Positions 28,709 through 64,000 of a stretch of 64,000 nt of DNA are shown here, piece after piece; positions within the stretch are counted from its first letter, which is position 1, and the number at the start of each line of letters is the position of its first letter. Source of the DNA: Escherchia phage Stokescottia; sequence record OR896820.1. One strand, given 5' to 3'. Below the pieces are notes generated by a model. The model did not search any database and had not been told where the DNA came from. It saw only the letters and a program-made list of their open reading frames with translations. The position numbers were made by a program, and so were the translations under genes.

Positions 28709-28713
28709 AAATA

Positions 28714-28993: not shown

Positions 28994-29013
28994 AAACACT
29001 TGAGGTAATAATA

Positions 29014-29361: not shown

Positions 29362-29374
29362 TATAATAAATACT

Positions 29375-30026: not shown

Positions 30027-30103
30027 GTGGCTATATCATAATTGGTTAATGATCCTGATTGTGAATCAGGCCTATGTGGATTCGAGTTCCACTAGCCACC
30101 CCA
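30027..30103 (+). tRNA. tRNA-His (anticodon GTG)
   Basis: Acceptor GTGGCTA/TAGCCAC, loop TTGTGAA, discriminator C, CCA; the 5' acceptor strand can also pair with 29910-29923. Confidence 0.7.
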
Positions 30104-30128
30104 AATTAACTTAAATAGGAAATAATAT

Positions 30129-30329
30129 ATGGCTGATTTCTGCAAACAATGCTCCATTGATATGTGGGGCAGAGATACTGGTGATCTTTCTGGTTTGATT
30201 ACAGAAGCCGAAGTTAAAGAAGGCTACGGTGCTGTTGTAATCTGTGAAGGTTGTGGTGTTATTCGTGTAGATCATGAAGGCAAACGTCTAGAAGAACCAG
30301 AACCAATAGCCACGGTTCCTGTAGAGTAA
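30129..30329 (+). CDS. Cys-rich small protein
   Basis: CKQC...CEGC pattern. Confidence 0.5.
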   Translation: MADFCKQCSIDMWGRDTGDLSGLITEAEVKEGYGAVVICEGCGVIRVDHEGKRLEEPEPIATVPVE

Positions 30330-30337
30330 AGAATTAT

Positions 30338-30413
30338 TGGAGTGTAGATCAATTGGCAGATCGTCGGCCTCTGACTTCGAAGGTTCCTGGTTCGATCCCA
30401 GGCACTCCAGCCA
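30338..30413 (+). tRNA. tRNA-Gln (anticodon CTG)
   Basis: Acceptor TGGAGTG/CACTCCA with U1-A72, D-stem GATC/GATC, loop CTCTGAC, discriminator G, CCA. Confidence 0.6.
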
Positions 30414-30419
30414 AATAAT

Positions 30420-30495
30420 TGGAGAGTAGTGTAACGGTTAGCACAACGGCCTTTGACTCCGTTAATGGTAGGTTCGATTCCTCCTTCTCCAGCCA
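30420..30495 (+). tRNA. tRNA-Gln (anticodon TTG)
   Basis: Acceptor TGGAGAG/TTCTCCA with U1-A72, loop CTTTGAC, discriminator G, CCA. Confidence 0.6.
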
Positions 30496-30503
30496 AACAA
30501 TAA

Positions 30504-30579
30504 GCGGTTAAGCACACGGGTTGTGTCGCAGGCCTTCCAAGCCTCGCTGAGTAGGGTTCGATTCCCTCTAGCCGCTCCA
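30504..30579 (+). tRNA. tRNA-Gly (anticodon TCC)
   Basis: Acceptor GCGGTTA/TAGCCGC, loop CTTCCAA, discriminator T, CCA. Confidence 0.65.
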
Positions 30580-30595
30580 ACTTTAAGGAAACGTT

Positions 30596-30817
30596 ATGCA
30601 CGTTTTTGAGTTTCGTAATAAAAGTACCGATAAACGAGTTATTGTTATTGGAGAAACATACCGAGCATATGAACAAACTGACGGCTCTGTTATCCTGAAT
30701 GATGAGAAAGGGGGTTTTAGCTTTTATCCCAAAGAAACTTACGAAGAATTTCGTACAAAGTTTCTTCTACCAGACTGGCTAGAAGTAGCGCAGCAACGAG
30801 AACCCGAAGATGGCTGA
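30596..30817 (+). CDS. hypothetical protein
   Basis: ORF track. Confidence 0.5.
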   Translation: MHVFEFRNKSTDKRVIVIGETYRAYEQTDGSVILNDEKGGFSFYPKETYEEFRTKFLLPDWLEVAQQREPEDG

Positions 30818-30982
30818 TAACCTAAAAGTCAAGATCGATAAACAAAAGAAACGTGTAGAAGTAGAGATTGGTGAAGAACGTGTAGCCTTCACCTTTGAAT
30901 TTCTACAACAAATGGCAATGACAGTCATGACTGATAAGTCTCCTGTTATTGAAAAAGAAATCCCGTTGAAATAACGGGTTCT

Positions 30983-31069
30983 GCTGGGTTGGCAGAATGG
31001 TTGAATGCACCTGATTTGTAATCAGGAGGAGTAATCCCATTGCAGGTTCGAATCCTGTGCCCAGCACCA
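30983..31069 (+). tRNA. tRNA-Thr (anticodon TGT) with 15-nt variable region
   Basis: Acceptor GCTGGGT/GCCCAGC, 3-bp D-stem with 11-nt loop, anticodon stem CCTGA/TCAGG, loop TTTGTAA, discriminator A, CCA. Confidence 0.6.
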
Positions 31070-31251
31070 ATTTAAGGACTAGTATGTTTAAACTGTTAGT
31101 AGTTATCTGGTATAGTCAATCAAATAGAGCGAATACCTCCCACGTTATAGACTTTAATACTAAAAATGAAGCTGAAAAAGCATATGCTAATTTAATAGAA
31201 CGTAATAAAGAATCTCGTAGTATAGTTTATGAAGTGACTAAACTTTATTAA
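31057..31251 (+). CDS. hypothetical protein
   Basis: ORF track; 5' end overlaps tRNA-Thr, so the true start is probably downstream. Confidence 0.4.
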   Translation: MPSTNLRTSMFKLLVVIWYSQSNRANTSHVIDFNTKNEAEKAYANLIERNKESRSIVYEVTKLY

Positions 31252-31259
31252 AAATTCAT

Positions 31260-31288
31260 TTGCTTTCTCTCTTATTTCTTGTTATAAT
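31260..31288 (+). promoter_or_regulatory. sigma70-type early promoter
   Basis: TTGCTT 31260-31265, TATAAT 31283-31288. Confidence 0.6.
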
Positions 31289-31318
31289 ACTTGTATAAAT
31301 TAATGAGAGGGAAACCAA

Positions 31319-31612
31319 ATGAAACGTTATCTTTCTGTTATGTTCCAAACTGGTGGTCAACGCTATACCTATGAATTTCCATCTTCTTGGAAAATCAAAG
31401 AAGGTGATCAAGTAGTTGTACTAACACCGCGTGATGGGTACAAGGTAGTAACGGTTAAGCAAGTCTTTCCAAAAGATTATACACCATCTAAGTCTATTAA
31501 TTATAAGATGATTCATGGTGTAGTTCGTCAAGTACCCCGAGTGGACATCGAGGTCAAAGTAGATAAAGATGGTAAACTTAAATATACCTCTTGCTTAGAA
31601 GAGTTGCTATAA
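31319..31612 (+). CDS. hypothetical protein
   Basis: ORF track. Confidence 0.5.
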   Translation: MKRYLSVMFQTGGQRYTYEFPSSWKIKEGDQVVVLTPRDGYKVVTVKQVFPKDYTPSKSINYKMIHGVVRQVPRVDIEVKVDKDGKLKYTSCLEELL

Positions 31613-31818
31613 TGAGGATTACTTTTACAGAAAAGATCATGAGTAATGGTGTTATGATCATTACTGCATGGGATGGTAATCAGTGGTGTAGTGTTTCAGG
31701 TATTAAGCCTGAAGAACAAACACTAGAAAATATCTCAAAGATTAAGCGAAGAATGGCAGAACGTGCACGACTTCCAGGTGCACCTAGAAATGGCAAACGT
31801 TCTGCAATTAAATGTTAA
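31591..31818 (+). CDS. hypothetical protein
   Basis: ORF track. Confidence 0.45.
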   Translation: MLRRVAIMRITFTEKIMSNGVMIITAWDGNQWCSVSGIKPEEQTLENISKIKRRMAERARLPGAPRNGKRSAIKC

Positions 31819-31819
31819 T

Positions 31820-31896
31820 GCTTCGGTAGCTTAGCGATCTAAAGCACTCGGCTGATAACCGAGAGATCGGGGGTTTAAATCCCTCCCGGAGTACCA
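31820..31896 (+). tRNA. tRNA-Ile (anticodon GAT)
   Basis: Acceptor GCTTCGG/CCGGAGT, D-stem GCTT/AAGC, loop CTGATAA, T-loop TTTAAAT, discriminator A, CCA. Confidence 0.7.
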
Positions 31897-31992
31897 AATT
31901 TAGGAATTAAGACTATGCGTCCAGGAAAGTTTAAAAAAGCTAATTGGTCTAAAGAGTATAAAGAATACTTACTTAGTCTAGTAAAACATAAC

Positions 31993-32068
31993 AGTTAGTT
32001 GGCAGAGTGGTTATGCACCTCCTTCATACGGAGCGACTACAGTGGTTCAAATCCACTACTAACTACCA
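31993..32068 (+). tRNA. tRNA with CAT anticodon (Met or Ile-lysidine type)
   Basis: Acceptor AGTTAGT/ACTAACT, loop TTCATAC, T-arm AGTGG-TTCAAAT-CCACT, discriminator A, CCA. Confidence 0.6.
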
Positions 32069-49508: not shown

Positions 49509-50230
49509 TCGGATTTGCACATGTTCTAGGGCAGTTTTTCACCTACTATAAATACCCTAGGCCGGTTTTCCTATACAGGGCGGTTATTTCTAGGAGACAT
49601 TTTTTGAAAACACATTTCCAGAAATTACTGTCGGATTTGCACATTGTGTTTCTAGAAATTTATGGTCGGATTTGCACAATTGCCTAAGTTTTCATGGACA
49701 CATAATCTCCTGAAAATGGCAGCATTATTTCGGGCCGAAGGCCCATGATTGCCTGAGTTTTTAGAGCCACAGAAATTTTCACTTGTCAAGCTATTTTGCC
49801 CCATTTTGCTAATAAAATTTTACTTTATCTCGCCCCAAGCCCAATTAACCCAAATTATCTCAACTCTTCCCCAAAAACGCAGCAAATCAGGTGCCCCGCA
49901 CCAAATATGCTGCCCCTCTAGCTTCTCCCTCTATTTTCTCTCGCTCTCTCATCTTCTCCCCAAACTCACACAATCACACGCCCTCTCATCGAAGTCACAA
50001 AAATCTTGTCGGATTCGCACATCTTAATCCTAGAAAAACCATGTCGGATTTGCACATACCCCACAGGATTCGAACGCAGTTCGAGATTGCTGGAGTTTTT
50101 GGGAAAATTCATTGTCGGATTTGCACACTATAAAAATTTTTCGGGTCGGATTTGCACACTACCAAAAATTGTCGGATTCGCACATACACGCCCGCACGTA
50201 ACACCCGTGGAGCAATGTCGGATTTGCACA
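49509..50230 (+). repeat. array of nine direct repeats GTCGGATT(T/C)GCACA with irregular spacing
   Basis: Copies at 49509, 49630, 49665, 50008, 50043, 50114, 50145, 50171, 50217; all same orientation. Confidence 0.85.
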
Positions 50231-50233
50231 AAA

Positions 50234-50255
50234 GCGCAGGGCAATTGCCCTGCGC
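50234..50255. repeat. perfect 22-bp palindrome GCGCAGGGCAATTGCCCTGCGC
   Basis: Read directly; immediately follows the last direct repeat. Confidence 0.85.
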
Positions 50256-50470
50256 TAAATACGAATGATAATAAGAATCATTCTCATTTAAAAAGCGGAA
50301 TGAGAATGATAATAATTCGCATTTAGAAAGTGAAACGAGAATCAATCTCATTTAAAAAGTGAAATGATTCTCGTTTAAAAAGCGGAATGAAAATTATTCA
50401 GGAAGTGAAACGATTCTCATTTAGAAAGTGAAATACAAATGAGAATGATTCGCATTTAAGAACGGAAGTG
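50256..50470 (+). repeat. degenerate tandem repeats (~25-30 bp unit, TC[TG]CATTTA[AG]AAAG[CT]G[AG]AA[CT]GA)
   Basis: About seven imperfect units read directly. Confidence 0.75.
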
Positions 50471-50600
50471 AGAAACACTGTTATTTAAGTTATCCACAGA
50501 CTTATTAACAGCACGATTTGACTTGACAAAATTCTAGCCATTTTGAAGCGTTATCAACAGACTTATCCACAACTTATCCTACTGTATAAATATACAGTAT
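50471..50600. repeat. left copy of ~130-bp imperfect inverted repeat with DnaA-box-like motifs and a LexA-box-like palindrome
   Basis: Aligns with the reverse complement of 54490-54620; contains TTATCCACA at 50490 and 50563 and CTGTATAAATATACAG at 50582. Confidence 0.75.
50582..50597. promoter_or_regulatory. LexA-box-like palindrome CTGT-N8-ACAG (also contains TATAAATA)
   Basis: ACTGTATAAATATACAGTA matches the gammaproteobacterial SOS-box consensus TACTGTATATATATACAGTA at 18 of 20 positions. Confidence 0.5.
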
Positions 50601-50965
50601 TCCTACGCAGTGAATAATTCTAATATAGCGTTAAAACGCTCTCAAACGCATTCTAACGCGTTTAATTTTGTTGGGGATACTAAAACAAGGGCAAAATTGG
50701 AGGAGGCTTGAAAATTAGTTAGCCCGCTAACGATCACACAAGGCGACACGTAACACCCTAACCATTAGCAGGCTAACCATCGCGGACGCGGTCAAATGAG
50801 AATGATTATCCTTTGAAAATTGGGGGCACTTCCTGATAGTTGCGCCCCGTGATTATTATAGTAGTGGGCAACCGTTACGCTTTGCCCACTCCCGCCACTC
50901 ATCTTGATGCCTAGACTTGCGACGGCGTACTAAAAACCGCTTGTACCAGTGATTAAACCATCGTT

Positions 50966-51169
50966 TCATAAATCCTCCTCCGGTAGTCGATGCGTGATCT
51001 TCTCCTCTTCCCTGTAGGAGTCTGCCAAATGCTGATAATAACCATCGTGATCATAAATCACTTTATCATACTCGCCACGCTCGACCGCTTGCCGGTTCTC
51101 CGGCGTATCGGGCACGTAAAAAACATCAACCATTGTACTGATTTTGGTTACAACAATTTTATTGCTCAT
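50966..51169 (-). CDS. hypothetical protein
   Basis: ORF track; last gene of the minus-strand cassette. Confidence 0.45.
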   Translation of the reverse strand: MSNKIVVTKISTMVDVFYVPDTPENRQAVERGEYDKVIYDHDGYYQHLADSYREEEKITHRLPEEDL

Positions 51170-51221
51170 AATAACGCTCCGTTACTATATAATCTCATTG
51201 CAATACACCAAAATTATATAG

Positions 51222-51437
51222 TTACTCATATTCTAGCTCGAAAATATCCTCACCATATAATTTGATTAAATCAATTAAATAAAACGCTGTGCCAGTATTA
51301 TTATTTCTTCTTATAAATCTATGATGAGCGTCTTTAAATACATTGAATACATCCCCTATTTTACCTACTCCCCATAAATCCTGTGTTAATTTTACCCGTT
51401 TAACCTTTAGCAACATATTCCAAGTAATTTCACTCAT
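51222..51437 (-). CDS. hypothetical protein
   Basis: ORF track; ATGA overlap with upstream gene. Confidence 0.45.
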   Translation of the reverse strand: MSEITWNMLLKVKRVKLTQDLWGVGKIGDVFNVFKDAHHRFIRRNNNTGTAFYLIDLIKLYGEDIFELEYE

Positions 51438-51778
51438 TGCGCCACCTTTCGAAACGCTGTTTCAATACTATCCGCAGTGGATTGAATATACGCGCCTTTC
51501 ATTATCAGGCGCTCAGTGCATACTTTGCGGAAAATATTAATAAAATCATCTTCATTTTCTGCAATTAATGCTTCACCCATAACTTGAACGTCACAAGATG
51601 CAAAAGTTAAAAATTGAAATGCTAGTTCACGGGCAACGACCGCATTGATTTTATAATGCGCCTTGCCCTCATAAATATTAATAACGCCCTTATAAGCTGG
51701 TGAAAGCTGATTCAAATAGTTTGCTAATAATGCTGGGCGGCAATTAGCAACAAAACGATTGCCCTCATAAATAACCAT
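51434..51778 (-). CDS. hypothetical protein
   Basis: Start at 51778 (MVIYEG). Confidence 0.5.
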   Translation of the reverse strand: MVIYEGNRFVANCRPALLANYLNQLSPAYKGVINIYEGKAHYKINAVVARELAFQFLTFASCDVQVMGEALIAENEDDFINIFRKVCTERLIMKGAYIQSTADSIETAFRKVAQ

Positions 51779-51901
51779 TTGACAGCCTCCCAATTAGATA
51801 GCCAGATAATAACATAAAGATCCCCAACGAAATGGGGTCATTTTTGAATAAGGTGGCGGTAAAACCGCCAACCATTGCAAGGGCAATAACGATAACGCTT
51901 T

Positions 51902-52114
51902 TCATAGTACCCCACGAAACGCAGCGTAAAAGGTGGCAAAGTGTTTAACCGTTTCAGCGATCACGTTGCCGCGCTTATCAAATTTTTTCTCGGTAACACG
52001 AAAGGCATTTTTGTTACGTGCTACATATTCGATTTTACAATCTTCCCGCTCGAACGTGTTAACATCCACCAGCTTAAAGCCTTTCGAACGTGCAAGAGAA
52101 ACGTTGCGGATCAT
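51902..52114 (-). CDS. hypothetical protein
   Basis: ORF track. Confidence 0.45.
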   Translation of the reverse strand: MIRNVSLARSKGFKLVDVNTFEREDCKIEYVARNKNAFRVTEKKFDKRGNVIAETVKHFATFYAAFRGVL

Positions 52115-52116
52115 TT

Positions 52117-52299
52117 TTATTCTCCTTTACTAGTCATGCAGCCCAGCAGATAAGAAAATACAGCAATGCCAGCACCAATAGTAACCATTGGTTTTGTATT
52201 TACTAGACCGCAGTAGGAATCCTGAATACCATAAGCGGTGGCGAAAAGAGTCAAAATAGCGCCCAAGATACCCGCCAGAATAGCTCGAAAAATAACCAT
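52117..52299 (-). CDS. small membrane protein
   Basis: Two hydrophobic helices. Confidence 0.45.
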   Translation of the reverse strand: MVIFRAILAGILGAILTLFATAYGIQDSYCGLVNTKPMVTIGAGIAVFSYLLGCMTSKGE

Positions 52300-52348
52300 T
52301 TGTAATACTCCCCTAGTTAGTGGGGCGAAAGTAACGCCCCGTTATTAA

Positions 52349-52579
52349 TTACATTAAAACAATTTTTGCCGCTTGTTTTTTGGTACAGTGTTCCGCTTTC
52401 AGGGTATCCAGCAAAAAGCCAGCCGTTTGCTGATCGATTTTATCGGCGTTGTATAGTTCTTGGATGGTGTTATAAGTTTTAGCAATGCCGAACTCCTGCA
52501 CCATGTCATGAATGATGACGCGGTTAGACACCCAGCCTTGAGCGGTAAACAGATGACTAGCAGAAGAATAAGCAACCAT
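52349..52579 (-). CDS. hypothetical protein
   Basis: Start at 52579 after RBS GGAGG. Confidence 0.5.
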   Translation of the reverse strand: MVAYSSASHLFTAQGWVSNRVIIHDMVQEFGIAKTYNTIQELYNADKIDQQTAGFLLDTLKAEHCTKKQAAKIVLM

Positions 52580-52684
52580 TTTAAGCCTCCAAATTTTTGG
52601 GAAAATTTTCAATCCACCGTTTTGGTGTAAAGGCATTATAACAAAAAAGGCCGCCATAAAAGGCGACCTTTACAAAACTTTACA

Positions 52685-53179
52685 CTAAACTACCTGTAAG
52701 GATTCAACATTGAAACATCGTTTCAGTTCGTCATGCAAGATAGCATATTCATCCCATCGGGTACTATCAGGAATATAAACAAGCTGTTTTAATCGGTTTG
52801 CGTATATTACCGCTTTATTGCCAATTATTTCCGCGCCACCATGTTTAATAATTAATTTCATGACGGAATTAATAGGATCGCCGCCGTTTACATATGCGCC
52901 GGATTTACTCAATTGATAATGATAAAGGCTTGCATATACGTTTTCATTTTCATACCATTCGCCCGATTCCTCGTCTTCGTAACCATCGCTACCAAAACGA
53001 GAAGCGTTATCAATAGCCATTTCATGAGCGAAAGCGTCCAGATCACAACCAGCGGGAACAAAGTGTTCCTCCGTCCAACCTTCCCCGCAATAGCCAGTAT
53101 GACAATCGACCAAAATGATCATATCATGTTTTGCCGTGCTCACTTCTCCCAGTGAGAAGCCATATTTTTCTTCTGACAT
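52685..53179 (-). CDS. acidic hypothetical protein
   Basis: Start at 53179 after RBS AGGAGG; Cys/His cluster VDCHTGYCGEGW. Confidence 0.55.
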   Translation of the reverse strand: MSEEKYGFSLGEVSTAKHDMIILVDCHTGYCGEGWTEEHFVPAGCDLDAFAHEMAIDNASRFGSDGYEDEESGEWYENENVYASLYHYQLSKSGAYVNGGDPINSVMKLIIKHGGAEIIGNKAVIYANRLKQLVYIPDSTRWDEYAILHDELKRCFNVESLQVV

Positions 53180-53243
53180 AATTAGCCTCCTATTAATTAA
53201 CAAGGGAATAGTAAAGCGGGGAAACAATCCCCGCTAAATATTA

Positions 53244-54230
53244 TTACTCGCTTTCGGTGTTAGTAGTAAAAGTAGAAATATCAATACCTTTCACCATTTC
53301 ATCAATCATTTCAGCAATATTGAAACTCTGTACCATTTCCAACATTGCCGCTTCCATTGCCGCCCCTGCTACCGCTTTCGCCTTTTGGTTAGTCGGGGCG
53401 TACTGGTCAACCGCTACACTCAGCAGGTTAGCGATCACTACACGACCAATCGGCGTATCAATATAACCTTTAATCATAAACGGTGCTTTTTTAGCCGCTA
53501 CTTTCGTGATTTGAGTTAGTGCAATTTTACCCGCTTCCAGTTTTGCAGCGTTTACAACAGCGGATTTATTAGCGGCAACGATGTTAGCAATCTTGGTCAT
53601 GGTGTTTTTTCCTTTGTTTTCAGTAGTTTGAGTGTTAGAATTTACAGCCTGATTTTCAACGTAAATACTTTCTTCTCTTTCGAAAGAGAATCCCGCACTT
53701 TCGACGTCGCCATCATATACATACGGGTATAATTCCGAGGGTAACAAAAAATTACCGTCGCCATCAAAAGCCATTATAGCGGTATATTGAGATCCGTCAT
53801 TATCCGGCTTATACCATCCAGCAGGTAAATACTTCCAGATAACATCTAAAAATCCCTCAATGCTAGAAAGTCCATTTATCAGATCAAGTCCAATAAGCTC
53901 AAAACCATTTATATTAAATGATTGACGGCCTGAATTGCTATGATACGCAACAATATTATTACCCTGCGCAACAATAAAATCGGTATCCGGCCCCGCTCCC
54001 CTGCCTGTAAAGATATGGCAATCCCGATTATATAAAACTAGCGTTGCCCCTTGCTTATATAACGGTAGAAAACTATCCATATCATAGGCGTCATACTCAT
54101 CAAAAAAGTTTTGATGAATAGTTTCAACCTTGTTAATAAAATGTTTAATGCTGGTTGACTTGCTACCGTCCAGCAGGTTGCGCAATGCACCTTTTAAAAC
54201 GGTGGCATTATCAGGTTTAAAAAGCCTCAT
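53244..54230 (-). CDS. hypothetical protein (first gene of cassette)
   Basis: Start at 54230 after RBS GAGGGAGG; ~330 aa with globular N-terminal half and Ala/Lys-rich helical C-terminal half. Confidence 0.55.
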   Translation of the reverse strand: MRLFKPDNATVLKGALRNLLDGSKSTSIKHFINKVETIHQNFFDEYDAYDMDSFLPLYKQGATLVLYNRDCHIFTGRGAGPDTDFIVAQGNNIVAYHSNSGRQSFNINGFELIGLDLINGLSSIEGFLDVIWKYLPAGWYKPDNDGSQYTAIMAFDGDGNFLLPSELYPYVYDGDVESAGFSFEREESIYVENQAVNSNTQTTENKGKNTMTKIANIVAANKSAVVNAAKLEAGKIALTQITKVAAKKAPFMIKGYIDTPIGRVVIANLLSVAVDQYAPTNQKAKAVAGAAMEAAMLEMVQSFNIAEMIDEMVKGIDISTFTTNTESE

Positions 54231-54489
54231 TTGTTCGGCCTCCCTCGTTAATCGGTGAGTGAATGATATAGATATTTGTTCACTAGGGGCAAGAAAAAAG
54301 AAAATGTTTTTTATTCCTTGCCTAGCGCCTAATTTTATGCTAACCGCGCAGCGGTGTAGTAAAGAGCAAAACACGGTGAAGCCACCAGGCCGACGCATTG
54401 AGGCTTTGCTTTAATATTACCTTGCAGCGTTTAGCTCGTTAGAATGCGATTTAGGCCGCTTAAAATTGATTGCAGTCGTTAACACTACC

Positions 54490-54620
54490 TTTTTACCCTG
54501 TATATTTATACAGTAGAATAACCTGTGGATAAGTCTGTGCAAAAGTCCTTATATCGCCGCCTATCGTGTCAAATCTTTTTGTGCTGTGGATAACATTGTG
54601 GATAACTTAAATGATAGTGG
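54490..54620. repeat. right copy of ~130-bp imperfect inverted repeat
   Basis: Reverse complement aligns with 50471-50600; DnaA-box-like 9-mers at 54524, 54585, 54597 and palindrome CTGTATATTTATACAG at 54498. Confidence 0.75.
54498..54513. promoter_or_regulatory. LexA-box-like palindrome upstream of the minus-strand cassette
   Basis: CTGTATATTTATACAGTA; on the minus strand reads CTGTATAAATATACAG about 285 bp upstream of the cassette start. Confidence 0.5.
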
Positions 54621-54639
54621 TTCTCACTTAGGCCGATGG

Positions 54640-54880
54640 TTTCTTATAGTTATTATTTACTGTAGTTATTATTTATTATAATTATTATTTCTCATTAATT
54701 TATATGTATATTATATATTATGTAATAGTTAGTTGGCTAATGAGATTTTCCGTGATTAATAGTCTGCTAATAATTTAATCCGTTACAATCCACCAGCATG
54801 ATTATCATCCTAGCAATTATTAGTCTGCTATTCTTCCAATACACACTAGCAAATAAAAGTCAATTAATTTATTTCATAAA
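54640..54880. other. strongly AT-rich block (possible DNA-unwinding element)
   Basis: Runs of TTATT/ATTAT with almost no G or C; flanked by DnaA-box-like motifs. Confidence 0.5.
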
Positions 54881-54886
54881 ATAAGT

Positions 54887-54923
54887 AGTTATCCACTGGA
54901 AAATAAAAGTCAAGTGGATAACT
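54887..54923. promoter_or_regulatory. palindromic pair of DnaA-box-like motifs (GTTATCCAC-N18-GTGGATAAC)
   Basis: Read directly; operator-like inverted repeat. Confidence 0.55.
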
Positions 54924-55368
54924 AGGAAAATTTCATTTTTGCTTTTGGGGATAAGTTATCAACAAGGCTAGAATGCGCCTAAAACGCTCCAGAACGCAAT
55001 AAAGTTTTTAGCCATCCCATCATAAGGGGATAGGCCGTTTATCGCTACCACGAGCTTTTTAGATTTTGTCAAGTAGGGCAAAGCAAATATAAATGAAAAA
55101 ATTACTTGCCTATCTGCTCTGTTTTGTGGTATTCGCGCGCCCGTTTCTTTTAATTTTAGGCCGTCGCCGGACGTGGTGCGGTGAATTTTGTCTTTACGTT
55201 TCTTTACAAAAATAGGGTTGCGCCATTTTCGGGAATCCCCTATTATTTATCACGTAGGGCGGCAATGACGAACTACACGGCGGGAAGTTTACCGCCGCGC
55301 TCTTTAAAAATTGGGTACATCTTAAAGCCTATCGGCGGTAAACTTATTCATTATAAGGAATCGACGAT

Positions 55369-55572
55369 ATGAAACAAACTTTATTGATCACTGGCAAGCC
55401 TAGCAAGGCACTAGATAGCAAAACAAAAAATTTGTTGACAGTAGCGCAAAGATCGGTAAAATATCGATTCACGCAGTACAAGAAAGGTCGCCAGCAAGGT
55501 TTAGAAATGATCTGGCGAAATATTATGATTGACCTGAAAGAAAATCATAAAAAATCTCAAAAAATTGTTTGA
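55369..55572 (+). CDS. small basic protein
   Basis: ORF track; RBS aggaa. Confidence 0.4.
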   Translation: MKQTLLITGKPSKALDSKTKNLLTVAQRSVKYRFTQYKKGRQQGLEMIWRNIMIDLKENHKKSQKIV

Positions 55573-55800
55573 CACCCTAGCCGATAGGCTTTAAGATGTA
55601 CCCAGTTCGACAAGAGCGATAACTTGATAAAATTTGACGGTCGGCACTTACCATAATGTGTCCCGCCCCCTAACTGGGATATAGCGGCCTACGTGGAGTT
55701 CTTTAAATTGATTATATTGGCGAGCGGATTGTTACTTATTACCTGCTACTTTCTAGCAGGTAATGCGGAACAATCCCCTAAATAACTTGGAGTTTATACT

Positions 55801-56052
55801 ATGCAAAACGTTATTACCGCGCCTAAAATTGGTCAATCCGTCTTCATTCCTTTCGTTACTAAAACGGATGAATTAACCGGAAAAGCCGAACGTATTAAAG
55901 GCGCGGCGCTTATGCCGTTTGATACAATCGACGCGGTATACGCTGAAACGGAACGTAGTAACAACGGCAAACCCGTTTTTAGCGTTCGCGTTAAATCCGG
56001 CGACGTTGTAAAGGTTGTTCAACGTAACGAAAAATGGGAAGCTGTTTTATAA
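55801..56052 (+). CDS. hypothetical protein
   Basis: ORF track; conserved upstream motif and GGAG RBS. Confidence 0.5.
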   Translation: MQNVITAPKIGQSVFIPFVTKTDELTGKAERIKGAALMPFDTIDAVYAETERSNNGKPVFSVRVKSGDVVKVVQRNEKWEAVL

Positions 56053-56150
56053 TCTAGTGTTAACTTTATATCCCCCTTATTTCAGGGGGATATAACGATT
56101 AACATTAAGTTAATCTAATCCCTTAAATTAAACAAACAGGAGTTTATATC

Positions 56151-56558
56151 ATGACTAACGCTAAAACCGCAAAATTTGCATGGAATGAAGAAAACACTCA
56201 AAAAGCTGTTTCCATGTATCAGCAATTAATCAACGAAAACGGTTTAGATTTTGCAAATAGCGACGGCCTGAAAGAGATTGCAAAAGCAGTAGGCGCGGCC
56301 TCCCCCGTATCCGTTCGGTCAAAATTGACCAGTGCAAAAGCCTATCAAAAAAGCGACAAGCCGCGCAAAGTTGGCGGCGGTAGTTCAATCCGCAAGGCTC
56401 ACTATGTGCGCGTTATTGCAAAACACGCTATCGATTCCGGCATTATCAAAGACGCCGACGATCTGGCAAGCCTTGAAAGTGCAAAATTGGAAACACTGGA
56501 CGCTGTAGCGCAATTGTTAGGCGTTGCCGATGAAGTGAAACAGGCCGCAGGGGAATAA
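56151..56558 (+). CDS. pre-early-type small protein (A2-like by size and position)
   Basis: 135 aa directly upstream of the A1-like gene; assignment by synteny and size only. Confidence 0.4.
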   Translation: MTNAKTAKFAWNEENTQKAVSMYQQLINENGLDFANSDGLKEIAKAVGAASPVSVRSKLTSAKAYQKSDKPRKVGGGSSIRKAHYVRVIAKHAIDSGIIKDADDLASLESAKLETLDAVAQLLGVADEVKQAAGE

Positions 56559-56648
56559 TAGTTATATCTTGCCCCCTTCTAGTGAGGGGGCAATAATATA
56601 ACTGTTTAGCGATAGTTATTTTCTTCCCTTAAATCAGGAGTTTTAAAA

Positions 56649-56846
56649 ATGATTTTCTTTCCTACTGAATCCTTAATTCTAGGCTTGTTTATTATGGCGG
56701 CCTCGTTATTGTTCGCTTATTTTCAAAATGATTTAGATTCGTATTATTTTAAACGCAAATCTAAATTGGCAAAGCGTTTAGGTCTGATTTGTTTTATTGC
56801 CGCCGTTGCTTGTGGTGTTAGTTCTAGCCTAGTGCCTTTAAATTAA
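56649..56846 (+). CDS. small membrane protein
   Basis: Two hydrophobic helices. Confidence 0.45.
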   Translation: MIFFPTESLILGLFIMAASLLFAYFQNDLDSYYFKRKSKLAKRLGLICFIAAVACGVSSSLVPLN

Positions 56847-56937
56847 TGTTGCAAATTATAACGCCTATTATTGGAGGCGTTATATTTGGCAATATTGCCA
56901 AAATTGAATTTAATCCCTTTAATGGAGTTTTATTACT

Positions 56938-58608
56938 ATGATTATTTCCGCAGAAAAACAAACCGTTATCCTGAAAATGGCCGCTGATTTCAATTTCTAC
57001 GGTAAACGCCTGCGCGCCACTAAATTGGAAGTTTGTGACGATATTTCGAAAGCGGTATACGATACTACTAAACACTCCACCACTATCTGCGACTGGCTGG
57101 AAGCAAATAAACCAGCGAAACCGAAAGCGGCAAAAGTAGCAAAAGCCATTAAAAACGATGAGCGCCCCGAAGCGGCTGGGATTGTTTCTAGTACCGTGGA
57201 ACAGTGGGAAGTAAAACAAGGTAAACGTTTTATTATTACGTCGATTCAAAATAATACTTTCCCGCATAAAAACTTTTTAGCCGCGCTGGAGCAATATGCT
57301 AAATTTATCGGCGCTGATTTGCTTGTTTCTAAGTATATTTATAATAAAAACGGATTCCAAAATGGGGAAGGTGCTGATGGGATCAAATATGATCCCGCTT
57401 TCGATAAATATATTTGCAGCAAAAACGTGTTTTTAAATAACCGCCGTTTCGCTTTCATGGCTGAAATTAATGTTTTGCCAACCGCAGATTATCCGCTTTC
57501 TGGATTTGCAGAAACTGCAACGGCTTTAAATATCGAGGGTCTGGCAATTGGTCACGCTAAAATCACCGCCGAAAGCGTGCCAGCTTTAAAAGGTGAAGTA
57601 GTGCGCCGTATGTATTCAACCGGAACGGCAACGCTCAAAAACTACATTCAGCAGAAAGCAGGACAGAAAGCGGAAGCACTTCATAATTTTGGCGCGCTTA
57701 TTGTTGAGTTCGACGACGACGGGGAGTTTTTTGTTCGCCAGCTTGAAACAATGGACGAAAGCGGCATGTTTTACGATTTGAATATTTGCGCCACTCCTTC
57801 GGGATGTTTTGAAACGTCGGGGCATGTTTTAGGCTTGCAGTATGGCGATATTCATGCAGAAAAACTAGATGAGGCTTGCGCTCAAGCGTCTTGGGGTCAT
57901 GGTGATACTTATGGGCTTGTGGATATTCTCAAACCGAAATATCAGTTTGTACATGATGTGCATGATTTTACATCCCGCAATCATCATAACCGCGCTTCTG
58001 GTGTATTCCTAGCGAAACAGTACGCCGCCGGACGTGATAAGGTTATTGATGATCTTATCGATACGGGGCGCGTGCTGGAATCAATGGAGCGTGATTTTTC
58101 TCAAACAATCATTGTTGAATCAAATCACGATTTGGCGTTATCCCGTTGGCTGGATGATCGAAATGCTAACATCAAAGACGATCCAGCAAACGCCGAACTA
58201 TATCACAGCCTAAACGCTGCAATCTATGCGGCTATTGCAAAGCAGGACGATACTTTCAACGTGCTAGATTATGCCTTGCGTAAGGTAGCAGGTTGTGAAT
58301 TTAACGCCATTTTCCTGACCACTGACCAATCGTTTAAAATTGCAGGCATTGAATGCGGCGTACACGGTCACAACGGCATAAACGGCAGCCGTGGCAATCC
58401 TAAGCAGTTTAAGAAATTGGGCAAGTTAAACACTGGTCATACTCATACGGCAAGCATTTACGGCGGCGTATATACCGCTGGCGTAGCAGGTAGTCTGGAT
58501 ATGGGTTACAACGTTGGCGCGTCAAGCTGGACGCAAACCCATTTAATTACATACGCAAACGGTCAGCGCACTTTGATTGACTTTAAGAATGGTAAATTCT
58601 TTGCGTAA
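56938..58608 (+). CDS. A1: A1-like pre-early protein with C-terminal metallophosphoesterase domain
   Basis: 556 aa; C-terminal half has GDIHAE, HDVHD, SNHD, GVHGHNG, TGHTHT blocks in calcineurin-like order; size matches what I recall for T5 A1. Confidence 0.55.
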   Translation: MIISAEKQTVILKMAADFNFYGKRLRATKLEVCDDISKAVYDTTKHSTTICDWLEANKPAKPKAAKVAKAIKNDERPEAAGIVSSTVEQWEVKQGKRFIITSIQNNTFPHKNFLAALEQYAKFIGADLLVSKYIYNKNGFQNGEGADGIKYDPAFDKYICSKNVFLNNRRFAFMAEINVLPTADYPLSGFAETATALNIEGLAIGHAKITAESVPALKGEVVRRMYSTGTATLKNYIQQKAGQKAEALHNFGALIVEFDDDGEFFVRQLETMDESGMFYDLNICATPSGCFETSGHVLGLQYGDIHAEKLDEACAQASWGHGDTYGLVDILKPKYQFVHDVHDFTSRNHHNRASGVFLAKQYAAGRDKVIDDLIDTGRVLESMERDFSQTIIVESNHDLALSRWLDDRNANIKDDPANAELYHSLNAAIYAAIAKQDDTFNVLDYALRKVAGCEFNAIFLTTDQSFKIAGIECGVHGHNGINGSRGNPKQFKKLGKLNTGHTHTASIYGGVYTAGVAGSLDMGYNVGASSWTQTHLITYANGQRTLIDFKNGKFFA

Positions 58609-58664
58609 TTAAATTATTACCCTAGCGGCTTGAAATATAGCCGCTATTACAGGAGCTAAATTAA

Positions 58665-58943
58665 ATGGCTATTAAAATTAATCTTCCCAACGTTAAAAAC
58701 ACCGCCGATACATGGTCGATTGATACTATATTGCGCGGCACTGTATACCGCAATTTAAAAGATAATAATTGTTATATTTATCAAAATGAATTAAACGGCC
58801 ACACTTATATAATTGAGTCCGATGGTTTTTGTTCTTTTGAGACTGATTATGAAGCGAAAGATCATATACAGGCAAATGATATTCCTGACGTATGGAAAGA
58901 AACAAATCTCGCTTTTGTTGTAAGTCTTGAAGCTAACAAATAA
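58665..58943 (+). CDS. hypothetical protein
   Basis: ORF track. Confidence 0.45.
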   Translation: MAIKINLPNVKNTADTWSIDTILRGTVYRNLKDNNCYIYQNELNGHTYIIESDGFCSFETDYEAKDHIQANDIPDVWKETNLAFVVSLEANK

Positions 58944-58981
58944 ATTAAATCCCTTATTAAATTAATTGGAGTTTTATAAAT

Positions 58982-59374
58982 ATGAAAAAGCAAAATATTC
59001 CTTTCGATCGCGCTCAATCCTCAATTGTTCTGGTTTATTCTAATGGCGAGCGTTATCACGTCGAGGCAGGGCACGTTATTGATGAATTATTAGACTTCAA
59101 TGACGCTTTACAGGTTACTACCTTTGCCTATACGCAAGGCCGCGCAAGTAGTTACATTAAGGCCGCAGGTGTTTATGTTGATACGGTGAAACAAGAAACG
59201 ATTATCATCGACGCCGTAAAATCCGGCCTTGCCTTTGCAGTTGTCGCGCCTTGCCCCGCTTGCCTCGATGATCACCTAGCGAGCGCAAAGGTATATACCT
59301 GCGCGGGTATTCGTTCCCATGTATCCGGCGAAGATATTAGTTTTATTGCTGATGCATTGGCTTATGGTCTTTAA
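58982..59374 (+). CDS. hypothetical protein
   Basis: ORF track. Confidence 0.5.
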   Translation: MKKQNIPFDRAQSSIVLVYSNGERYHVEAGHVIDELLDFNDALQVTTFAYTQGRASSYIKAAGVYVDTVKQETIIIDAVKSGLAFAVVAPCPACLDDHLASAKVYTCAGIRSHVSGEDISFIADALAYGL

Positions 59375-59453
59375 TAGTTGATTTATTATTGCCCGCTGAT
59401 AAATAGCGGGCAATGCTGAATTAATCTAATCCCTTTAATGGAGAACGTAACAA

Positions 59454-60188
59454 ATGAATAAAGCTATTATTAATTCTTTCCGTAATTTCCCGCATATTTC
59501 CCGCGTCATGATTTGGGATTTAGACGGCACTATCATTAATTCTTTCCATCGTGTAGCGCCTTGCTTTGATAGTGAGGGCAATTTAGATTTAAATAAGTAT
59601 AAAAATGAAGCCTGCAAACATCATTTAATAATGCAAGATACTTTATTGCCATTGGTTGAATATATGCGCCAGTGCATGAATGACGCAAATACTTTAAACA
59701 TTATTTGCACCGCTCGATTGATGAGCAAGTCGGATTACTATTTCTTGCGCAAACAAGGATTGCGAGGGCGTGGAAATAGCAATATCCGCGTGTTTTCCCG
59801 CGATACACTGCACAAATATTTTGAGGCTGATAAAGTTAGCGAAATATACCACAGCAAAGACGCAGTTTATAAATCTTATTACTTTGAGCTATTTAAACAG
59901 CTATATCCGAATGCTGATTTTACAATGATTGACGATCATAAAGGCGTGCTATCAGCGGCGGCATCATACGGGTTTAAAACGCTGGACGCGCAAGCCGTTA
60001 ACGATATTCTATCAATCGGCGTGGCATTGATAGGTGAAACCTTTATCGATGAATCTCTCGACGATGATAATGATTATCAGTTCCTAGCTGATCGCTTGAA
60101 ATTATGTTGGGAAAGTATGACCGAAGAAGAACGCGCAGAATATAGTTGCAGCCCGCAACAATATATTGAGAAATTAAAAGTTGCGTAA
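59454..60188 (+). CDS. dmp: HAD-family phosphatase (5'-deoxyribonucleotidase Dmp-like)
   Basis: N-terminal MIWDLDGTIINS matches HAD motif I; 244 aa in a pre-early-like context; symbol by analogy only. Confidence 0.45.
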   Translation: MNKAIINSFRNFPHISRVMIWDLDGTIINSFHRVAPCFDSEGNLDLNKYKNEACKHHLIMQDTLLPLVEYMRQCMNDANTLNIICTARLMSKSDYYFLRKQGLRGRGNSNIRVFSRDTLHKYFEADKVSEIYHSKDAVYKSYYFELFKQLYPNADFTMIDDHKGVLSAAASYGFKTLDAQAVNDILSIGVALIGETFIDESLDDDNDYQFLADRLKLCWESMTEEERAEYSCSPQQYIEKLKVA

Positions 60189-60201
60189 TAATTAAAGTTG
60201 A

Positions 60202-60239
60202 AATAGTCACGGTGTGTAACGATAACATGCCGTGACTAT
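60202..60239. terminator. palindromic hairpin between convergent genes
   Basis: ATAGTCACGG...CCGTGACTAT inverted repeat. Confidence 0.5.
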
Positions 60240-60345
60240 TAGCTTGCTAAGTACCGGGCGGTAATGAGACTCATTCTCATCTGGGAGGCCACTGGACACA
60301 CCTCCATGTGTAATCTTATGAAATTTGGCAAAAGTCAAATTAGCG

Positions 60346-60561
60346 CTATTTACGGGCTGACTGCCTGAGAATGGACTGCCATAGATGGTCAGTCTTAACA
60401 AGATTATTGATGTACTCAATAGCTTCACCAAATCTCATAAATCCTTCTGGAATTTCCGAAGACTTAGGAAAAACTTGTAGCATCCCTTGGGTGATACCCA
60501 TCTTTTCAAGTTCTTCTTGAGTTATCTCAAACTCCCCGAAAAACCGCCCGAATTCTTTCAT
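60346..60561 (-). CDS. hypothetical protein
   Basis: Start at 60561 (MKEFGRFF). Confidence 0.4.
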   Translation of the reverse strand: MKEFGRFFGEFEITQEELEKMGITQGMLQVFPKSSEIPEGFMRFGEAIEYINNLVKTDHLWQSILRQSARK

Positions 60562-60803
60562 GAGCTTCTCCTGTCTACTGGCTTGTCTCCTGATTCTGAC
60601 ATACGAAATCTCTTCCGCGACGCCCGAGATCCATCCGACCACTCCCGTTCAAACTCCGCACGTTTCTCGTCAAACTTCCGCTCCCTTTCCGCAATCTCCC
60701 GCGACACTTCCGCAATATATTTACGATGCTTGTTGATTGCCGCAGTCGTCCCGAAAACTCCCGCGAGTATCCCGATAATAAAAGCAATTATAATACTAAA
60801 CAT
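60558..60803 (-). CDS. membrane-anchored basic protein
   Basis: N-terminal TM helix then Arg/Glu-rich tail. Confidence 0.45.
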   Translation of the reverse strand: MFSIIIAFIIGILAGVFGTTAAINKHRKYIAEVSREIAERERKFDEKRAEFEREWSDGSRASRKRFRMSESGDKPVDRRSS

Positions 60804-60990
60804 CTAATTCCCTCTCAATTTGCAGAATACGGGTGCTATCACAACGTTGCAGTAGTACTAGCTTTTCTAGAGCAACCTGTTGTTGTTTTACCTGGGCTTC
60901 TAGAGTTTTTAGGCGGAGATACACGATACGAGAGACAATGAGGATTACCCAGACTAATATTACTATTAGTGTAACTGTCACTTCCACCAT
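60796..60990 (-). CDS. membrane-anchored coiled-coil protein
   Basis: N-terminal TM helix then coiled coil. Confidence 0.45.
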   Translation of the reverse strand: MVEVTVTLIVILVWVILIVSRIVYLRLKTLEAQVKQQQVALEKLVLLQRCDSTRILQIERELDV

Positions 60991-61398
60991 TTACGCTTCT
61001 CCAATAGTAAGGTTTCAATTCTAGCTAAGTGATTATCTAAAATACACTGCCCAATAATCACAATCCCTAGTAGCGCAATAATTACCCATTCCATTAAATC
61101 CACCCCGCCATAGCTGCTAGCCAAAAACCTACGAAAATAAAGAATAAGATAGTTCCGAATCCGAAACTATTTACCCAGCTATCATATACCTCTCCACGTC
61201 TGCTCTTTCTTTTATTTGACATATCTTTCATGCTCCAGTAAATATGATATTTTAAAATATTTTATAGTTTGTGCATAACCAACCATGCTCGTGACTTCCT
61301 AGAGGGCTTTTCACTTTCTTGCATAGTGTTTTCTGCCAATATACCATCCAAAAAATAAAAAATTTAGTTTACTTGGATGTCTTTTTGTTTTATACTAA

Positions 61399-61665
61399 TT
61401 ACAAGTAATTAGATTGTTCTAGTTTAAATTTACAATCACCATATTTAAGATCAAACTGACTGAGATCCCACCACCCAAACTTAGTACGGAGCTGTACTAC
61501 TGGAAAGCGATCTCCCTTAATACGAACTTTTTGAACCTTGAGGCCGTAATGTTCTTCTCCCGCACCACCAAAAGATTTTACAAATCCCGTACAAAATGGT
61601 TTAGGAGCAGGTGCACAACCAGATAACATAACTGCGGCAACTAGTGCAATCACAAACTTTTTCAT
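61399..61665 (-). CDS. llp: small lipoprotein (Llp-like lytic-conversion/superinfection-exclusion candidate)
   Basis: Signal peptide with lipobox LSGC; 88 aa; divergent from the adjacent receptor-binding gene. Confidence 0.5.
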   Translation of the reverse strand: MKKFVIALVAAVMLSGCAPAPKPFCTGFVKSFGGAGEEHYGLKVQKVRIKGDRFPVVQLRTKFGWWDLSQFDLKYGDCKFKLEQSNYL

Positions 61666-61750
61666 ATTTATCTCTCCATTTCTAATTTATGAATCTATTA
61701 TAGCAAAATAGAGGGATGAAAGCAAATACATTTTTATAATAGGAGATTAT

Positions 61751-63508
61751 ATGGGTTTTTTCGCTGGAAAATATAGCGATGGTAAGACCGTACTATCTTT
61801 AAATACTGAATCTGGTGGTGACATTAATCGTCACTATAGTCCAAATAATAATAGTATTTTTCATAGTGATATGCCATTTGTCCTAGTTGATGGTACCTAT
61901 GAGGCTCCATTAGGCAATGCTGGAAATGGGTTTTTTGTATGTCAGATGCCCTCTGACATAATAAATATTAAATCTAATGACCCAGGTAGAGTTATACTAA
62001 CTGCTATTGAGATTAATGGTACTCATAGGGCTTTTCTTAACGGTACTCAGAGTAAGGTGGGTCAAACTATAGTTGCTACTCAGGCAGACCCTTTTAGGTC
62101 TTTTGCTAGTGTTTCCCAGACCAGTGGATTTGCCTTTGGTAATAGCCTGGCATCTGGTACATATAACTATAACCCATCTATAGGTCATGAAGAATCTATT
62201 TCTAGGAATGGTACTGGGGGAACCACCCTACATAGTACTTATCACGGTATAGTTAGGCCAGGTGGAGGAGCTCCCGTAGGGGTTACTGTTGCAGAAGCTT
62301 TTTCACAGCTGGGTTTTCCTACTAATAGTAGTACAGTACCTATAGATGGTAATAATCCATACTACTGGGATCCAGGATGGATGTCTCCTTTAGGGTCAGC
62401 ACACAGAGGACACGATTGGTTCTATGTTTGTAACTCCAATATACGTGGGTATGGTGGGGTAAGACAAGGTCTTCCTGGCAATGTAAATACTATGTACCAC
62501 GATGGGGGTAACAGATTTGTTTGTAGGGGTTCTACAACTAATTTAGCTAATCAATCTGGTAATGCTACAATATTACAGGATTGGTATAACATAACTCCTA
62601 CTAAGGTTATTTGGTATGTACTTAATCTGAGATATTCTAATGGTAATATGGGTATCTCTGGTAATCCTTTTACTGGTTCAGATATTCTTATCTCTCCCTC
62701 TAACTTCATAATTAAAGGAGTAAGTCTTCCTAATACTGGATATAAGTTTATTAACCAGAATGCTTTCGGTAACTTAGGCTATAGGCCAGATATGGAATAC
62801 GTCGGAAATAACGCAGCGTACACTGGAGCCTTCGGGGATACCACTGCAAGGTGTGAACTTGTAGGCTCTAGTAATGGAAGTTTATGGTCTCCTGTAGACT
62901 ATGGAGGGGCTAAGTCTCAAATTAGTATTTACAAATTCGGAGCGGGTAAGCAATGGTACGTAAACTCAAGTAATAATACTATTGGTAATGAACATGGTGT
63001 TGTTTGGGGGCCTTCTTCAGTTCCTCTGAGACTTTTTAGTGGAAATGTTGGTAGTTCTTACATGGGGGATGATATTACCCCTTACTACCCAGGAACTGGA
63101 GATAGATATGTGGCTTTATCTACTATTGGACTAGGTATTCCAGGAGGTAATGCTACTGTTATTCTTACTACTGAAGTTATATCTGGTAATCTTAATTGTG
63201 CTGGTGTTCCAGCTAATACATGGAATAATGGTGTATTTCAGGTGCAAGGTAGAAGGGCTTATAGTTATAGTAATGGAGATGCAGTATTCCACCAGATTTT
63301 AACATTACCTGTAGGTTACTTAGTACCATTTCATACTACATCTGCATTTAGATATACACCTAATAACGCACTGAGTAGAAATAGTTTCATATATACAGTT
63401 AAAAATCTAGGAAATGGAAATGTAGAGTTAGGGGTAGTTATGCACGTAAGTTTAGGTAGTGCAGTTTTCCTACCTAGATTAAGAGTAACAGTTCAACGCC
63501 TTACCTAA
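61751..63508 (+). CDS. putative receptor-binding tail protein
   Basis: 585 aa, Gly/Asn/Ser/Thr-rich with no catalytic motifs; paired with the divergent lipoprotein gene. Confidence 0.5.
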
Positions 63509-63518: not shown

Positions 63519-64000
63519 ATGGCAAATGATGTATTAGTACCGGATCTTATGTCCCCTGAAGGGATGGATGTAATTGAAGCTTATTTACAGTGTGGCAGTG
63601 ATGTGCCTTCTGCCGCACGTAGTCTTGGGATGTCCGAAATTGCTTTTCGAGATATTATGAATCGTAGTGAAGTTAAGAACTACTTAAACGATATTTTTAT
63701 GGAGAGTGGTTTCCGTAACAGAGATCGTTTATTTGGTGTTCTAGATGAAGTTATCAAGCGTAAACTAGAGGAACTAGAAGAGACCGGCATGGGTTCTGAC
63801 CAAGATATTATGGATATTCTCTGGAAGGCACATAAAATGAAAATGGAAGAGATGAAGATGATGGTAGAATTGGAGAAAGTGAAGGCAGCAGCCCGTACTC
63901 CAGCTAACCAGACCAACATCCAGAATAATATTATTGCTGGAGCTGGGGATCAAAACTACATGGACTTAATTACTTCCCTAGCTACTGGAGGTAAGAAGTA
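63519..64000 (+). CDS. HTH-containing protein, possible terminase small subunit (3' end beyond window)
   Basis: Open to window end; N-terminal helix-turn-helix-like [17 protein letters not shown] then coiled coil. Confidence 0.35.

Follow-up and report, generated by a model that had tools for sequence, protein, structure and literature searches.

A BF23-type receptor-recognition and lytic-conversion module, most probably directed at BtuB, in the T5-like phage Stokescottia

We analysed a divergent gene pair within a 64,000-nt stretch of DNA (hereafter called the window) from Escherichia phage Stokescottia (OR896820.1). The pair very likely represents, for a T5-like phage, the BF23-type module of BtuB recognition and lytic conversion, i.e., a small lipoprotein (Llp) and a receptor-binding tail protein (RBP) with BtuB as the most probable receptor. 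BtuB is the vitamin B12 transporter and the receptor for this vitamin and for colicin E. In a preliminary description of the pair, the targeted receptor was considered not readable from the sequence. This view has to be revised, since Llp is identical to the BtuB blocker of BF23 and the RBP falls within the BtuB clade, far from the FhuA-type pb5, such that BtuB can be inferred by homology with high confidence.

Gene pair and genomic context

All coordinates are compiled in Table 1. The preliminary description had reported an 88-aa lipoprotein with lipobox LSGC, encoded divergently from a 585-aa Gly/Asn-rich protein. Both open reading frames were recovered with exactly the coordinates given there, and the large protein is composed of 13.3% Gly, 9.7% Asn and 9.4% Ser. 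Between the start codons of llp and the RBP gene, which point away from a shared centre, lies a spacer of 85 bp. According to megablast, the pair is kept in 272 phage records, and for 116 of these the query coverage is 80% or more. Because the pair is conserved across hundreds of phage genomes and both proteins show specific phage-family matches (see below), we consider both ORFs to be real genes and not chance products.

Table 1. Features of the llp-RBP module and its surroundings (positions within the window).
Feature	Position	Strand	Remarks
A1 DNA-transfer protein	56938..58608		upstream of the module
dmp-like gene	59454..60188		upstream of the module
llp	61399..61665	minus	ORF, 88 aa; by homology precursor of a receptor-blocking (lytic conversion, superinfection exclusion) lipoprotein
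Signal peptide and lipobox of Llp, residues 1-17 (MKKFVIALVAAVMLSGC)	61615..61665	minus	LPAM_1 match and direct reading
Divergent control region llp/RBP	61666..61750	.	85 bp, AT-rich (23.5% GC)
Shine-Dalgarno GGAGAG of llp	61672..61677	minus	6 nt upstream of ATG; read from the sequence
T5-type early sigma-70 promoter of llp, TTGCTT-N17-TATAAT	61697..61725	minus	exact motif match; TG at -15/-14
Shine-Dalgarno AGGAG of the RBP gene	61741..61745	plus	5 nt upstream of ATG; read from the sequence
RBP gene	61751..63508	plus	ORF, 585 aa; by homology pb5/Hrs/Oad family, BtuB-type, AKFV33 subtype
RBP hypervariable segment, aa 101-270	62051..62560	plus	predicted receptor-contacting loop region; nearest DT57C
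RBP second variable segment, aa 531-585	63341..63505	plus	nearest DT57C
terS (terminase small subunit)	63519..64000	plus	conserved downstream flank; phrog_3802, E 6.5e-91; gene cut by the window end

The 2.3-kb region shows 92-97% nucleotide identity to Salmonella phage L6jm, PH204, the Escherichia phages fp01, AKFV33 and Lindwurm, and others. With regard to the window, many Tequintavirus genomes are 90-97% identical on the nucleotide level, and its final 24 kb show 91-95% identity to BUCT632, Lindwurm and their relatives. Judged by these identities, the window is a Tequintavirus (T5-like siphovirus) genome with AKFV33, L6jm and BUCT632 as closest relatives.

Upstream of the module we find, besides the A1 and dmp-like genes, four small conserved ORFs (small membrane ORFs). 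That is, the T5/BF23 order of right terminal repeat, small ORFs, llp, RBP, terS and terL is present, and the same gene order is seen in T5, BF23, AKFV33, SPC35 and DT57C. The RBP gene is positioned as expected of pb5/Hrs in a Tequintavirus or Epseptimavirus genome, i.e., immediately upstream of terS, divergent from llp and beside the right terminal repeat, and phiR2-01 likewise has this order. Furthermore, the pairing of llp with an RBP gene is common to T5, BF23, SPC35, DT57C, phiR2-01 and AKFV33. The preliminary description had suggested a T5-type lytic-conversion lipoprotein paired with a receptor-binding protein, and our results support this: the surrounding genome is T5-like, Llp is identical to that of BF23, and over its entire length the large protein is homologous to pb5/Hrs. 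The gene order is read here in reverse-complement orientation, with the terminal repeat collapsed to a single copy.

Within the spacer, an exact match to the T5-type early promoter motif is directed towards llp. The window holds 14 sites of this motif, compared to 0.07 expected. The llp promoter was found by a search with the T5-specific consensus, whereas a generic sigma-70 scan missed it because TTGCTT shares only 3 of its 6 bases with TTGACA. In the AKFV33 record a promoter is annotated within the same spacer, and a predicted early promoter of the BF23 record overlaps both this spacer and the beginning of llp. Early llp expression would fit lytic conversion.

The lipoprotein Llp

The 88-aa translation of llp starts with MKKFVIALVAAVMLSGCAP. 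The lipobox LSGC covers residues 14-17, i.e., Cys17 is the lipidated cysteine of a type II signal peptide. Pfam's LPAM_1 model is matched with 23.9 bits (E 5.1e-05), which is above the curated cut-off of 20, and the Pfam search of Llp returned this lipobox model and no further family. According to the Lol rule, Lol avoidance needs Asp at position +2. The residue following Cys17 is Ala, which predicts sorting to the outer membrane.

Llp is 100% identical (88/88 aa) to the BF23 protein annotated as 'receptor blocking protein' (WLW40760 of OR083247) and also 100% identical to AKFV33 orf159. The Llps of DT57C and SPC35 show 99% identity, and Gp145 of phiR2-01 shows 52%. The sole difference from DT57C Llp is A11T; since this position falls inside the cleaved signal peptide, the mature lipoproteins of both phages are identical. 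On the family level, Llp matches phrog_1119 ('Cor superinfection exclusion protein') over its full length with E 1.8e-26.

Passages of PMC4728585 and PMC10644984 that go back to Mondigler et al. 2006 describe BF23 Llp as a BtuB-blocking lipoprotein, and Llp is named as the receptor-blocking partner of Hrs in BF23 (PMC10644984). The llp gene of DT57C has been cloned; with leaky expression from a plasmid, plating dropped more than 100-fold for DT57C, DT571/2 and BF23 and was unaffected for T5 (PMC4728585). Going by its identity to these proteins, the Llp of Stokescottia should be a blocker of BtuB in infected cells. The PCR primers of PMC4728585 fit the window at 61217-61237 and at the reverse complement of 61641-61681, with one mismatch each.

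The receptor-binding protein

The RBP matches phrog_4815 ('receptor binding tail protein') over residues 1-585 with E 2.3e-274. A kinship with pb5/Hrs-type proteins, which the preliminary description had brought up, is also evident from the comparison with solved structures, i.e., the T5 pb5 chains 8B14_B and 8A8C_B match the RBP end to end (E 6.5e-47). The Pfam search of the RBP found no family; its DUF2534 hit (E 0.22) is noise. On the basis of this homology, the large protein is a pb5/Hrs-type receptor-binding tail protein with a predicted location at the tail tip.

Among the RBPs aligned globally, identity is highest to AKFV33 orf158 (97.6%, 14 substitutions), followed by the RBPs of DT57C and SPC35 (73% each), BF23 Hrs (67%), phiR2-01 (55%) and T5 pb5 (29%). 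When 540 phage records are compared via tblastn, we observe three identity bands with a clear gap. The top band (94-99%) comprises about 100 records and is referred to as the AKFV33 subtype in the following. The middle band (55-74%) is formed by other BtuB-type RBPs, including that of the BASEL phage HildyBeyeler (68%). All remaining matches show at most 34% identity, and this lowest band includes the FhuA-type T5 pb5. The AKFV33 subtype is also present in L6jm, PH204, fp01, Lindwurm, SSP1, phiLLS and about 100 further records with at least 90% protein identity.

Identity to the other BtuB-type RBPs varies along the protein. Residues 1-100 and 271-430 are SPC35-like (89-98%); for residues 271-430, identities of 89-92% to SPC35 are observed vs. 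71-74% to DT57C. In the hypervariable segment (aa 101-270), DT57C reaches 60-76% identity, compared to 45-52% for BF23 and SPC35; in the second variable segment (aa 531-585), the respective values are 82% and 56%. Within the latter, the RBP studied here lacks an insertion of 10 residues that is present in BF23 and SPC35. On the nucleotide level, the comparison with BF23, DT57C and SPC35 yields 97% identity for llp, 96.5-100% for the spacer and 91-92% for terS, with 66-71% for the RBP body in between.

For T5 pb5, the loops that insert into FhuA are L1 (Gln115), L2 (Phe170) and L4 (570-590) (PMC9586334). In a low-identity alignment, these loops map to RBP residues of about 114, 171 and 530-540, respectively, i.e., their predicted counterparts all fall within the variable segments. 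The overall pattern fits diversifying recombination at a putative receptor-contact surface between the conserved llp and terS flanks. The same kind of mosaic, with a recombination point between hrs and llp, was described earlier for DT57C by Golomidova et al. (PMC4728585).

Receptor assignment

Passages of PMC8624392, PMC4728585 and PMC10644984 report BF23, DT57C, DT571/2, SPC35, EPS7 and phiR2-01 as BtuB users, and btuB mutants are resistant to DT57C (PMC4728585). The RBP of Stokescottia clusters with the BtuB-dependent RBPs of phiR2-01, BF23, SPC35 and DT57C (55-74%), apart from the FhuA and FepA types. With regard to the 94-99% subtype, we found no direct receptor determination in the literature on AKFV33, phiLLS, fp01, SSP1, L6jm and BUCT632, and the receptor was not settled in the AKFV33 paper. 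We infer from the clustering that an RBP of the AKFV33 subtype very probably binds BtuB itself.

An alternative to be weighed here is a receptor switch, i.e., that the AKFV33-subtype RBP uses FhuA, FepA or another transporter and is accompanied by a mismatched Llp that still blocks BtuB. It is in the predicted receptor-contact segment (aa 101-270) that the RBP is least like proven BtuB binders (45-76%), with BF23 and SPC35 at the lower end of this range (45-52%). A switch would furthermore be in accordance with the recombination boundary between llp and the RBP body, where nucleotide identity drops from 97-100% for llp and spacer to 66-71%, and with the AKFV33 authors' view of the receptor as open. 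On the other hand, the segments most unlike BF23 are exactly those best shared with DT57C, which is BtuB-dependent and has a working BF23-type Llp (PMC4728585). Even the RBP of phiR2-01, as distant as 55%, still uses BtuB (PMC8624392), while the known non-BtuB RBPs, T5 pb5 among them, are all at most 31% identical. In addition, no selection would be expected to act on a mismatched Llp, yet all 88 residues are identical to those of BF23 Llp. Since RBPs down to 55% identity keep BtuB and Llp is identical to that of BF23, a receptor switch is very unlikely, and we retain BtuB as receptor.

A similarly slim chance is given to the idea that the remodelled segments (aa 101-270 and 531-585) serve either a target that is not canonical BtuB or an extended set of BtuB variants (E. 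coli, Salmonella, Shigella). Either altered specificity, if true, could explain the recurrence of the subtype in phages for which Escherichia as well as Salmonella are listed as hosts. With a truly different receptor, the module, with an Llp that does not fit its own RBP, would show a receptor switch caught midway, within a unit that is thought to be inherited as a whole.

Proposed mechanism

By analogy with T5 pb5, the central straight tail fibre would carry the RBP at its tip, where the protein would irreversibly bind a TonB-dependent transporter of the outer membrane, most probably BtuB, with its surface loops entering the extracellular lumen, and this binding would trigger tail opening and subsequent DNA ejection. 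For T5 pb5, the location at the tail tip, the irreversible binding and the triggering of ejection are known (PMC9586334). Llp, in turn, would be made early from the T5-type promoter and exported; after lipidation at Cys17, it would be directed to the outer membrane. Its inactivation of BtuB would prevent superinfection and would keep progeny from being lost on BtuB in cell debris.

How Llp might inactivate BtuB can be extrapolated from T5. The crystal structure of T5 Llp with FhuA shows Llp on the periplasmic side, bound to a non-native conformation of the plug, and the extracellular loops folded inward (PMC9586334). Correspondingly, Llp may jam the BtuB plug from the periplasmic side such that the extracellular loops fold inward. 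We favour this step with moderate confidence, given that it is drawn by analogy.

The analogy depends on how Llp relates to T5 Llp. T5 Llp (E 1.1e-19), phiR2-01 Gp145 and the Llp studied here all match phrog_1119 over their full length. Moreover, 12 BF23-type Llp sequences all have Cys25 and Cys78, which align, albeit in a low-identity alignment, with the disulphide pair Cys11-Cys58 (mature numbering) of T5 Llp (PMC9586334). Direct similarity is weak in BLASTP (E 1e-4), and when the alignment of BF23-type Llps is compared with T5 Llp by hhalign, the match covers residues 1-29 only, i.e., the signal peptide and the region of the first Cys. A deep homologue search with Llp resulted in 11 clusters, all of them BF23-type, with no bridge to T5 Llp or Cor, and the comparison with sequences of solved structures gave chance matches only (E >=0.2).

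The AlphaFold2 model of Llp, which was built from the 12-sequence alignment, predicts a small beta-sheet protein with a pLDDT of 83. For this model, Foldseek returned no PDB match with E <=0.001, and T5 Llp was absent from the 50 best matches. The weight of this negative result is low, because the bound conformation of T5 Llp is not predicted by AlphaFold2 (PMC9586334). Within BFVD, the model matches only phiR2-01 Gp145 (TM 0.81) and a T5-like superinfection-exclusion protein (TM 0.48).

Given these observations, Llp of the same module could also block BtuB by another route, e.g., on its extracellular face, instead of plug-jamming with reverse allostery. Such a route would agree with T5 Llp homology being unconvincing outside the signal peptide and the N-terminal Cys, with the lack of a PDB fold match of the Llp model, and with older literature that calls BF23-type and T5 Llp non-homologous (PMC10644984, PMC4728585). 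It is less in line with the full-length phrog_1119 matches of both Llps and the alignment of Cys25/Cys78 with the T5 disulphide pair. Besides, Ala at +2 suits a lipoprotein of the outer membrane's inner leaflet, and BtuB and FhuA are both TonB-dependent transporters with the same plug architecture. We consider another blocking route unlikely and continue to prefer plug-jamming. Far less weight is due to an unrelated lipoprotein, i.e., a spanin component or a moron without receptor function that is paired with the RBP by coincidence. Related Llps do show weak PHROG matches to Rz-like spanin families via the signal peptide, but these are confined to the first 17-26 residues with E >0.01, and a spanin assignment of Llp was rejected. 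The complete identity to BF23 Llp, the function of which is published, effectively excludes a non-receptor role, and the pairing with the RBP is kept in T5, BF23 and the other phages listed above. Hence, a coincidental pairing is practically out of the question.

Comparison with known systems

The hrs (oad)/llp module of BF23 was reportedly described by Mondigler et al. in 2006. It is encoded by BF23_00170 and BF23_00171 (OR083247) and shares with the pair in Stokescottia the identical Llp (88/88), the divergent orientation, a spacer with 96.5% nucleotide identity, and the location, flanked by terS and the side of the terminal repeat. The RBPs are homologous over their full length (67%), but the RBP of Stokescottia has 585 aa compared to 595 aa in BF23, lacks the BF23 insertions, and is only 45-56% identical in residues 101-270 and 531-585.

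A very close match is orf158/orf159 of vB_EcoS_AKFV33 (NC_017969), with 97.6% (RBP) and 100% (Llp) identity, the same promoter and the same gene order; the differences are point differences only. The hrs/llp modules of DT57C and DT571/2 (KM979354; PMC4728585) have an identical mature Llp and are those that best share the divergent RBP segments (60-82%). For these phages, BtuB dependence as well as exclusion by Llp are experimental (Golomidova et al. 2016, PMC4728585). In contrast to this local similarity, the overall RBP identity to DT57C is only 73%, and residues 271-430 are closer to SPC35.

With the pb5 (oad)/llp module of T5 and its FhuA receptor (8B14, 8A8C; PMC9586334), the pair shares the architecture, divergent early/late transcription and the family of tail-tip RBPs, and T5 provides the functional paradigm, a lipoprotein that blocks a TonB-dependent transporter. 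Unlike in T5, the RBP is 55 residues shorter with 29% identity and the receptor is BtuB instead of FhuA according to our assignment; the Llps are only marginally similar, although both belong to phrog_1119. The Cor lipoproteins of T1, phi80, N15 and HK022 are likewise small outer-membrane proteins that exclude phages dependent on TonB-dependent transporters, and they share the PHROG label with Llp. They differ from Llp in targeting FhuA and in belonging to other groups of phages.

Implications

The practical value of the assignment is one of annotation, i.e., BtuB can be predicted as the terminal receptor of Stokescottia. With BtuB as receptor, loss of btuB would likely be the main route to resistance, and colicin E resistance would probably be cross-selected. 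Infected cells should, furthermore, exclude other BtuB-dependent phages. For phage cocktails, this suggests a pairing with FhuA- or FepA-dependent phages.

In kind, nothing about the pair is new: it is a textbook module that is already known. Its mosaic RBP, set between the conserved flanks llp and terS, follows the pattern of DT57C and leaves the current understanding unchallenged. Many GenBank records already annotate the pair as 'receptor-binding tail protein' and 'receptor-blocking protein'.

Mosaic structure of the receptor-binding protein gene

Comparing the window with the phages BF23, DT57C and SPC35, we find that the receptor-binding protein gene is a recombination mosaic. Residues 1-100 and 271-430 of its product are SPC35-like (89-98%), while for residues 101-270 and 531-585 DT57C is nearest. 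The flanking genes, i.e., the lipoprotein gene llp and the terminase small subunit gene, show 91-97% identity among all four phages.

GenBank labels of the homologues are not always reliable: the one of phiLLS (KY677846) is mislabelled 'super-infection exclusion protein' and that of SLAM_phiST45 (PP948674) 'terminase small subunit'. In both records, the label seems to have been displaced from an adjacent gene.

Genomic context of the llp module

Further features of the window are summarized in the following table.

Features of the window surrounding the llp/receptor-binding protein module
Feature	Position	Strand	Remark
T5 early-promoter consensus matches	within 3988-43879, plus 61697-61725	both	exact consensus search
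Cluster of 21 tRNA genes	19925-32068	+	
A1 (DNA transfer protein gene)	56938-58608		pre-early terminal-repeat gene
dmp-like gene	59454-60188		pre-early terminal-repeat gene
Four small overlapping ORFs (81, 64, 48, 45 aa)	60558-61231	-	between terminal repeat and llp
Terminator-like hairpin	61149-61170	-	inside 45-aa ORF (61094-61231), downstream of llp
Receptor-binding protein gene	61751-63508	+	recombination mosaic

The T5 early-promoter consensus TTGCTT-N17-TATAAT has 14 exact matches in the window, compared to 0.07 expected. Twelve plus-strand sites fall among the early genes; the two on the minus strand are the site at 3988-4016 and the promoter driving llp (61697-61725). The tRNA cluster, which is typical of T5-like phages, holds two genes each for tRNA-Met(cat), tRNA-Gln, tRNA-Leu and tRNA-Ser.

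In the region from about 50000 to 60300, the pre-early terminal-repeat genes lie directly between the early genes and llp (61399 onward), and the source assembly therefore seems to contain a single, collapsed copy of the terminal repeat. It is also reverse-complemented relative to the reference orientation of T5 and BF23.

Downstream of llp, the four small ORFs are kept in T5-like phages. Their PHROG matches are phrog_6447, annotated as 'membrane protein', and phrog_5851, phrog_6369 and phrog_8596, all of unknown function. The hairpin within the shortest of these ORFs is the only terminator-like one near the module, i.e., none directly follows the llp stop codon. The corresponding side of llp in JLBYU43 has an ORF, truncated at the edge of the part of that record considered, that is also called 'putative receptor blocking protein', a label that seems unsupported.
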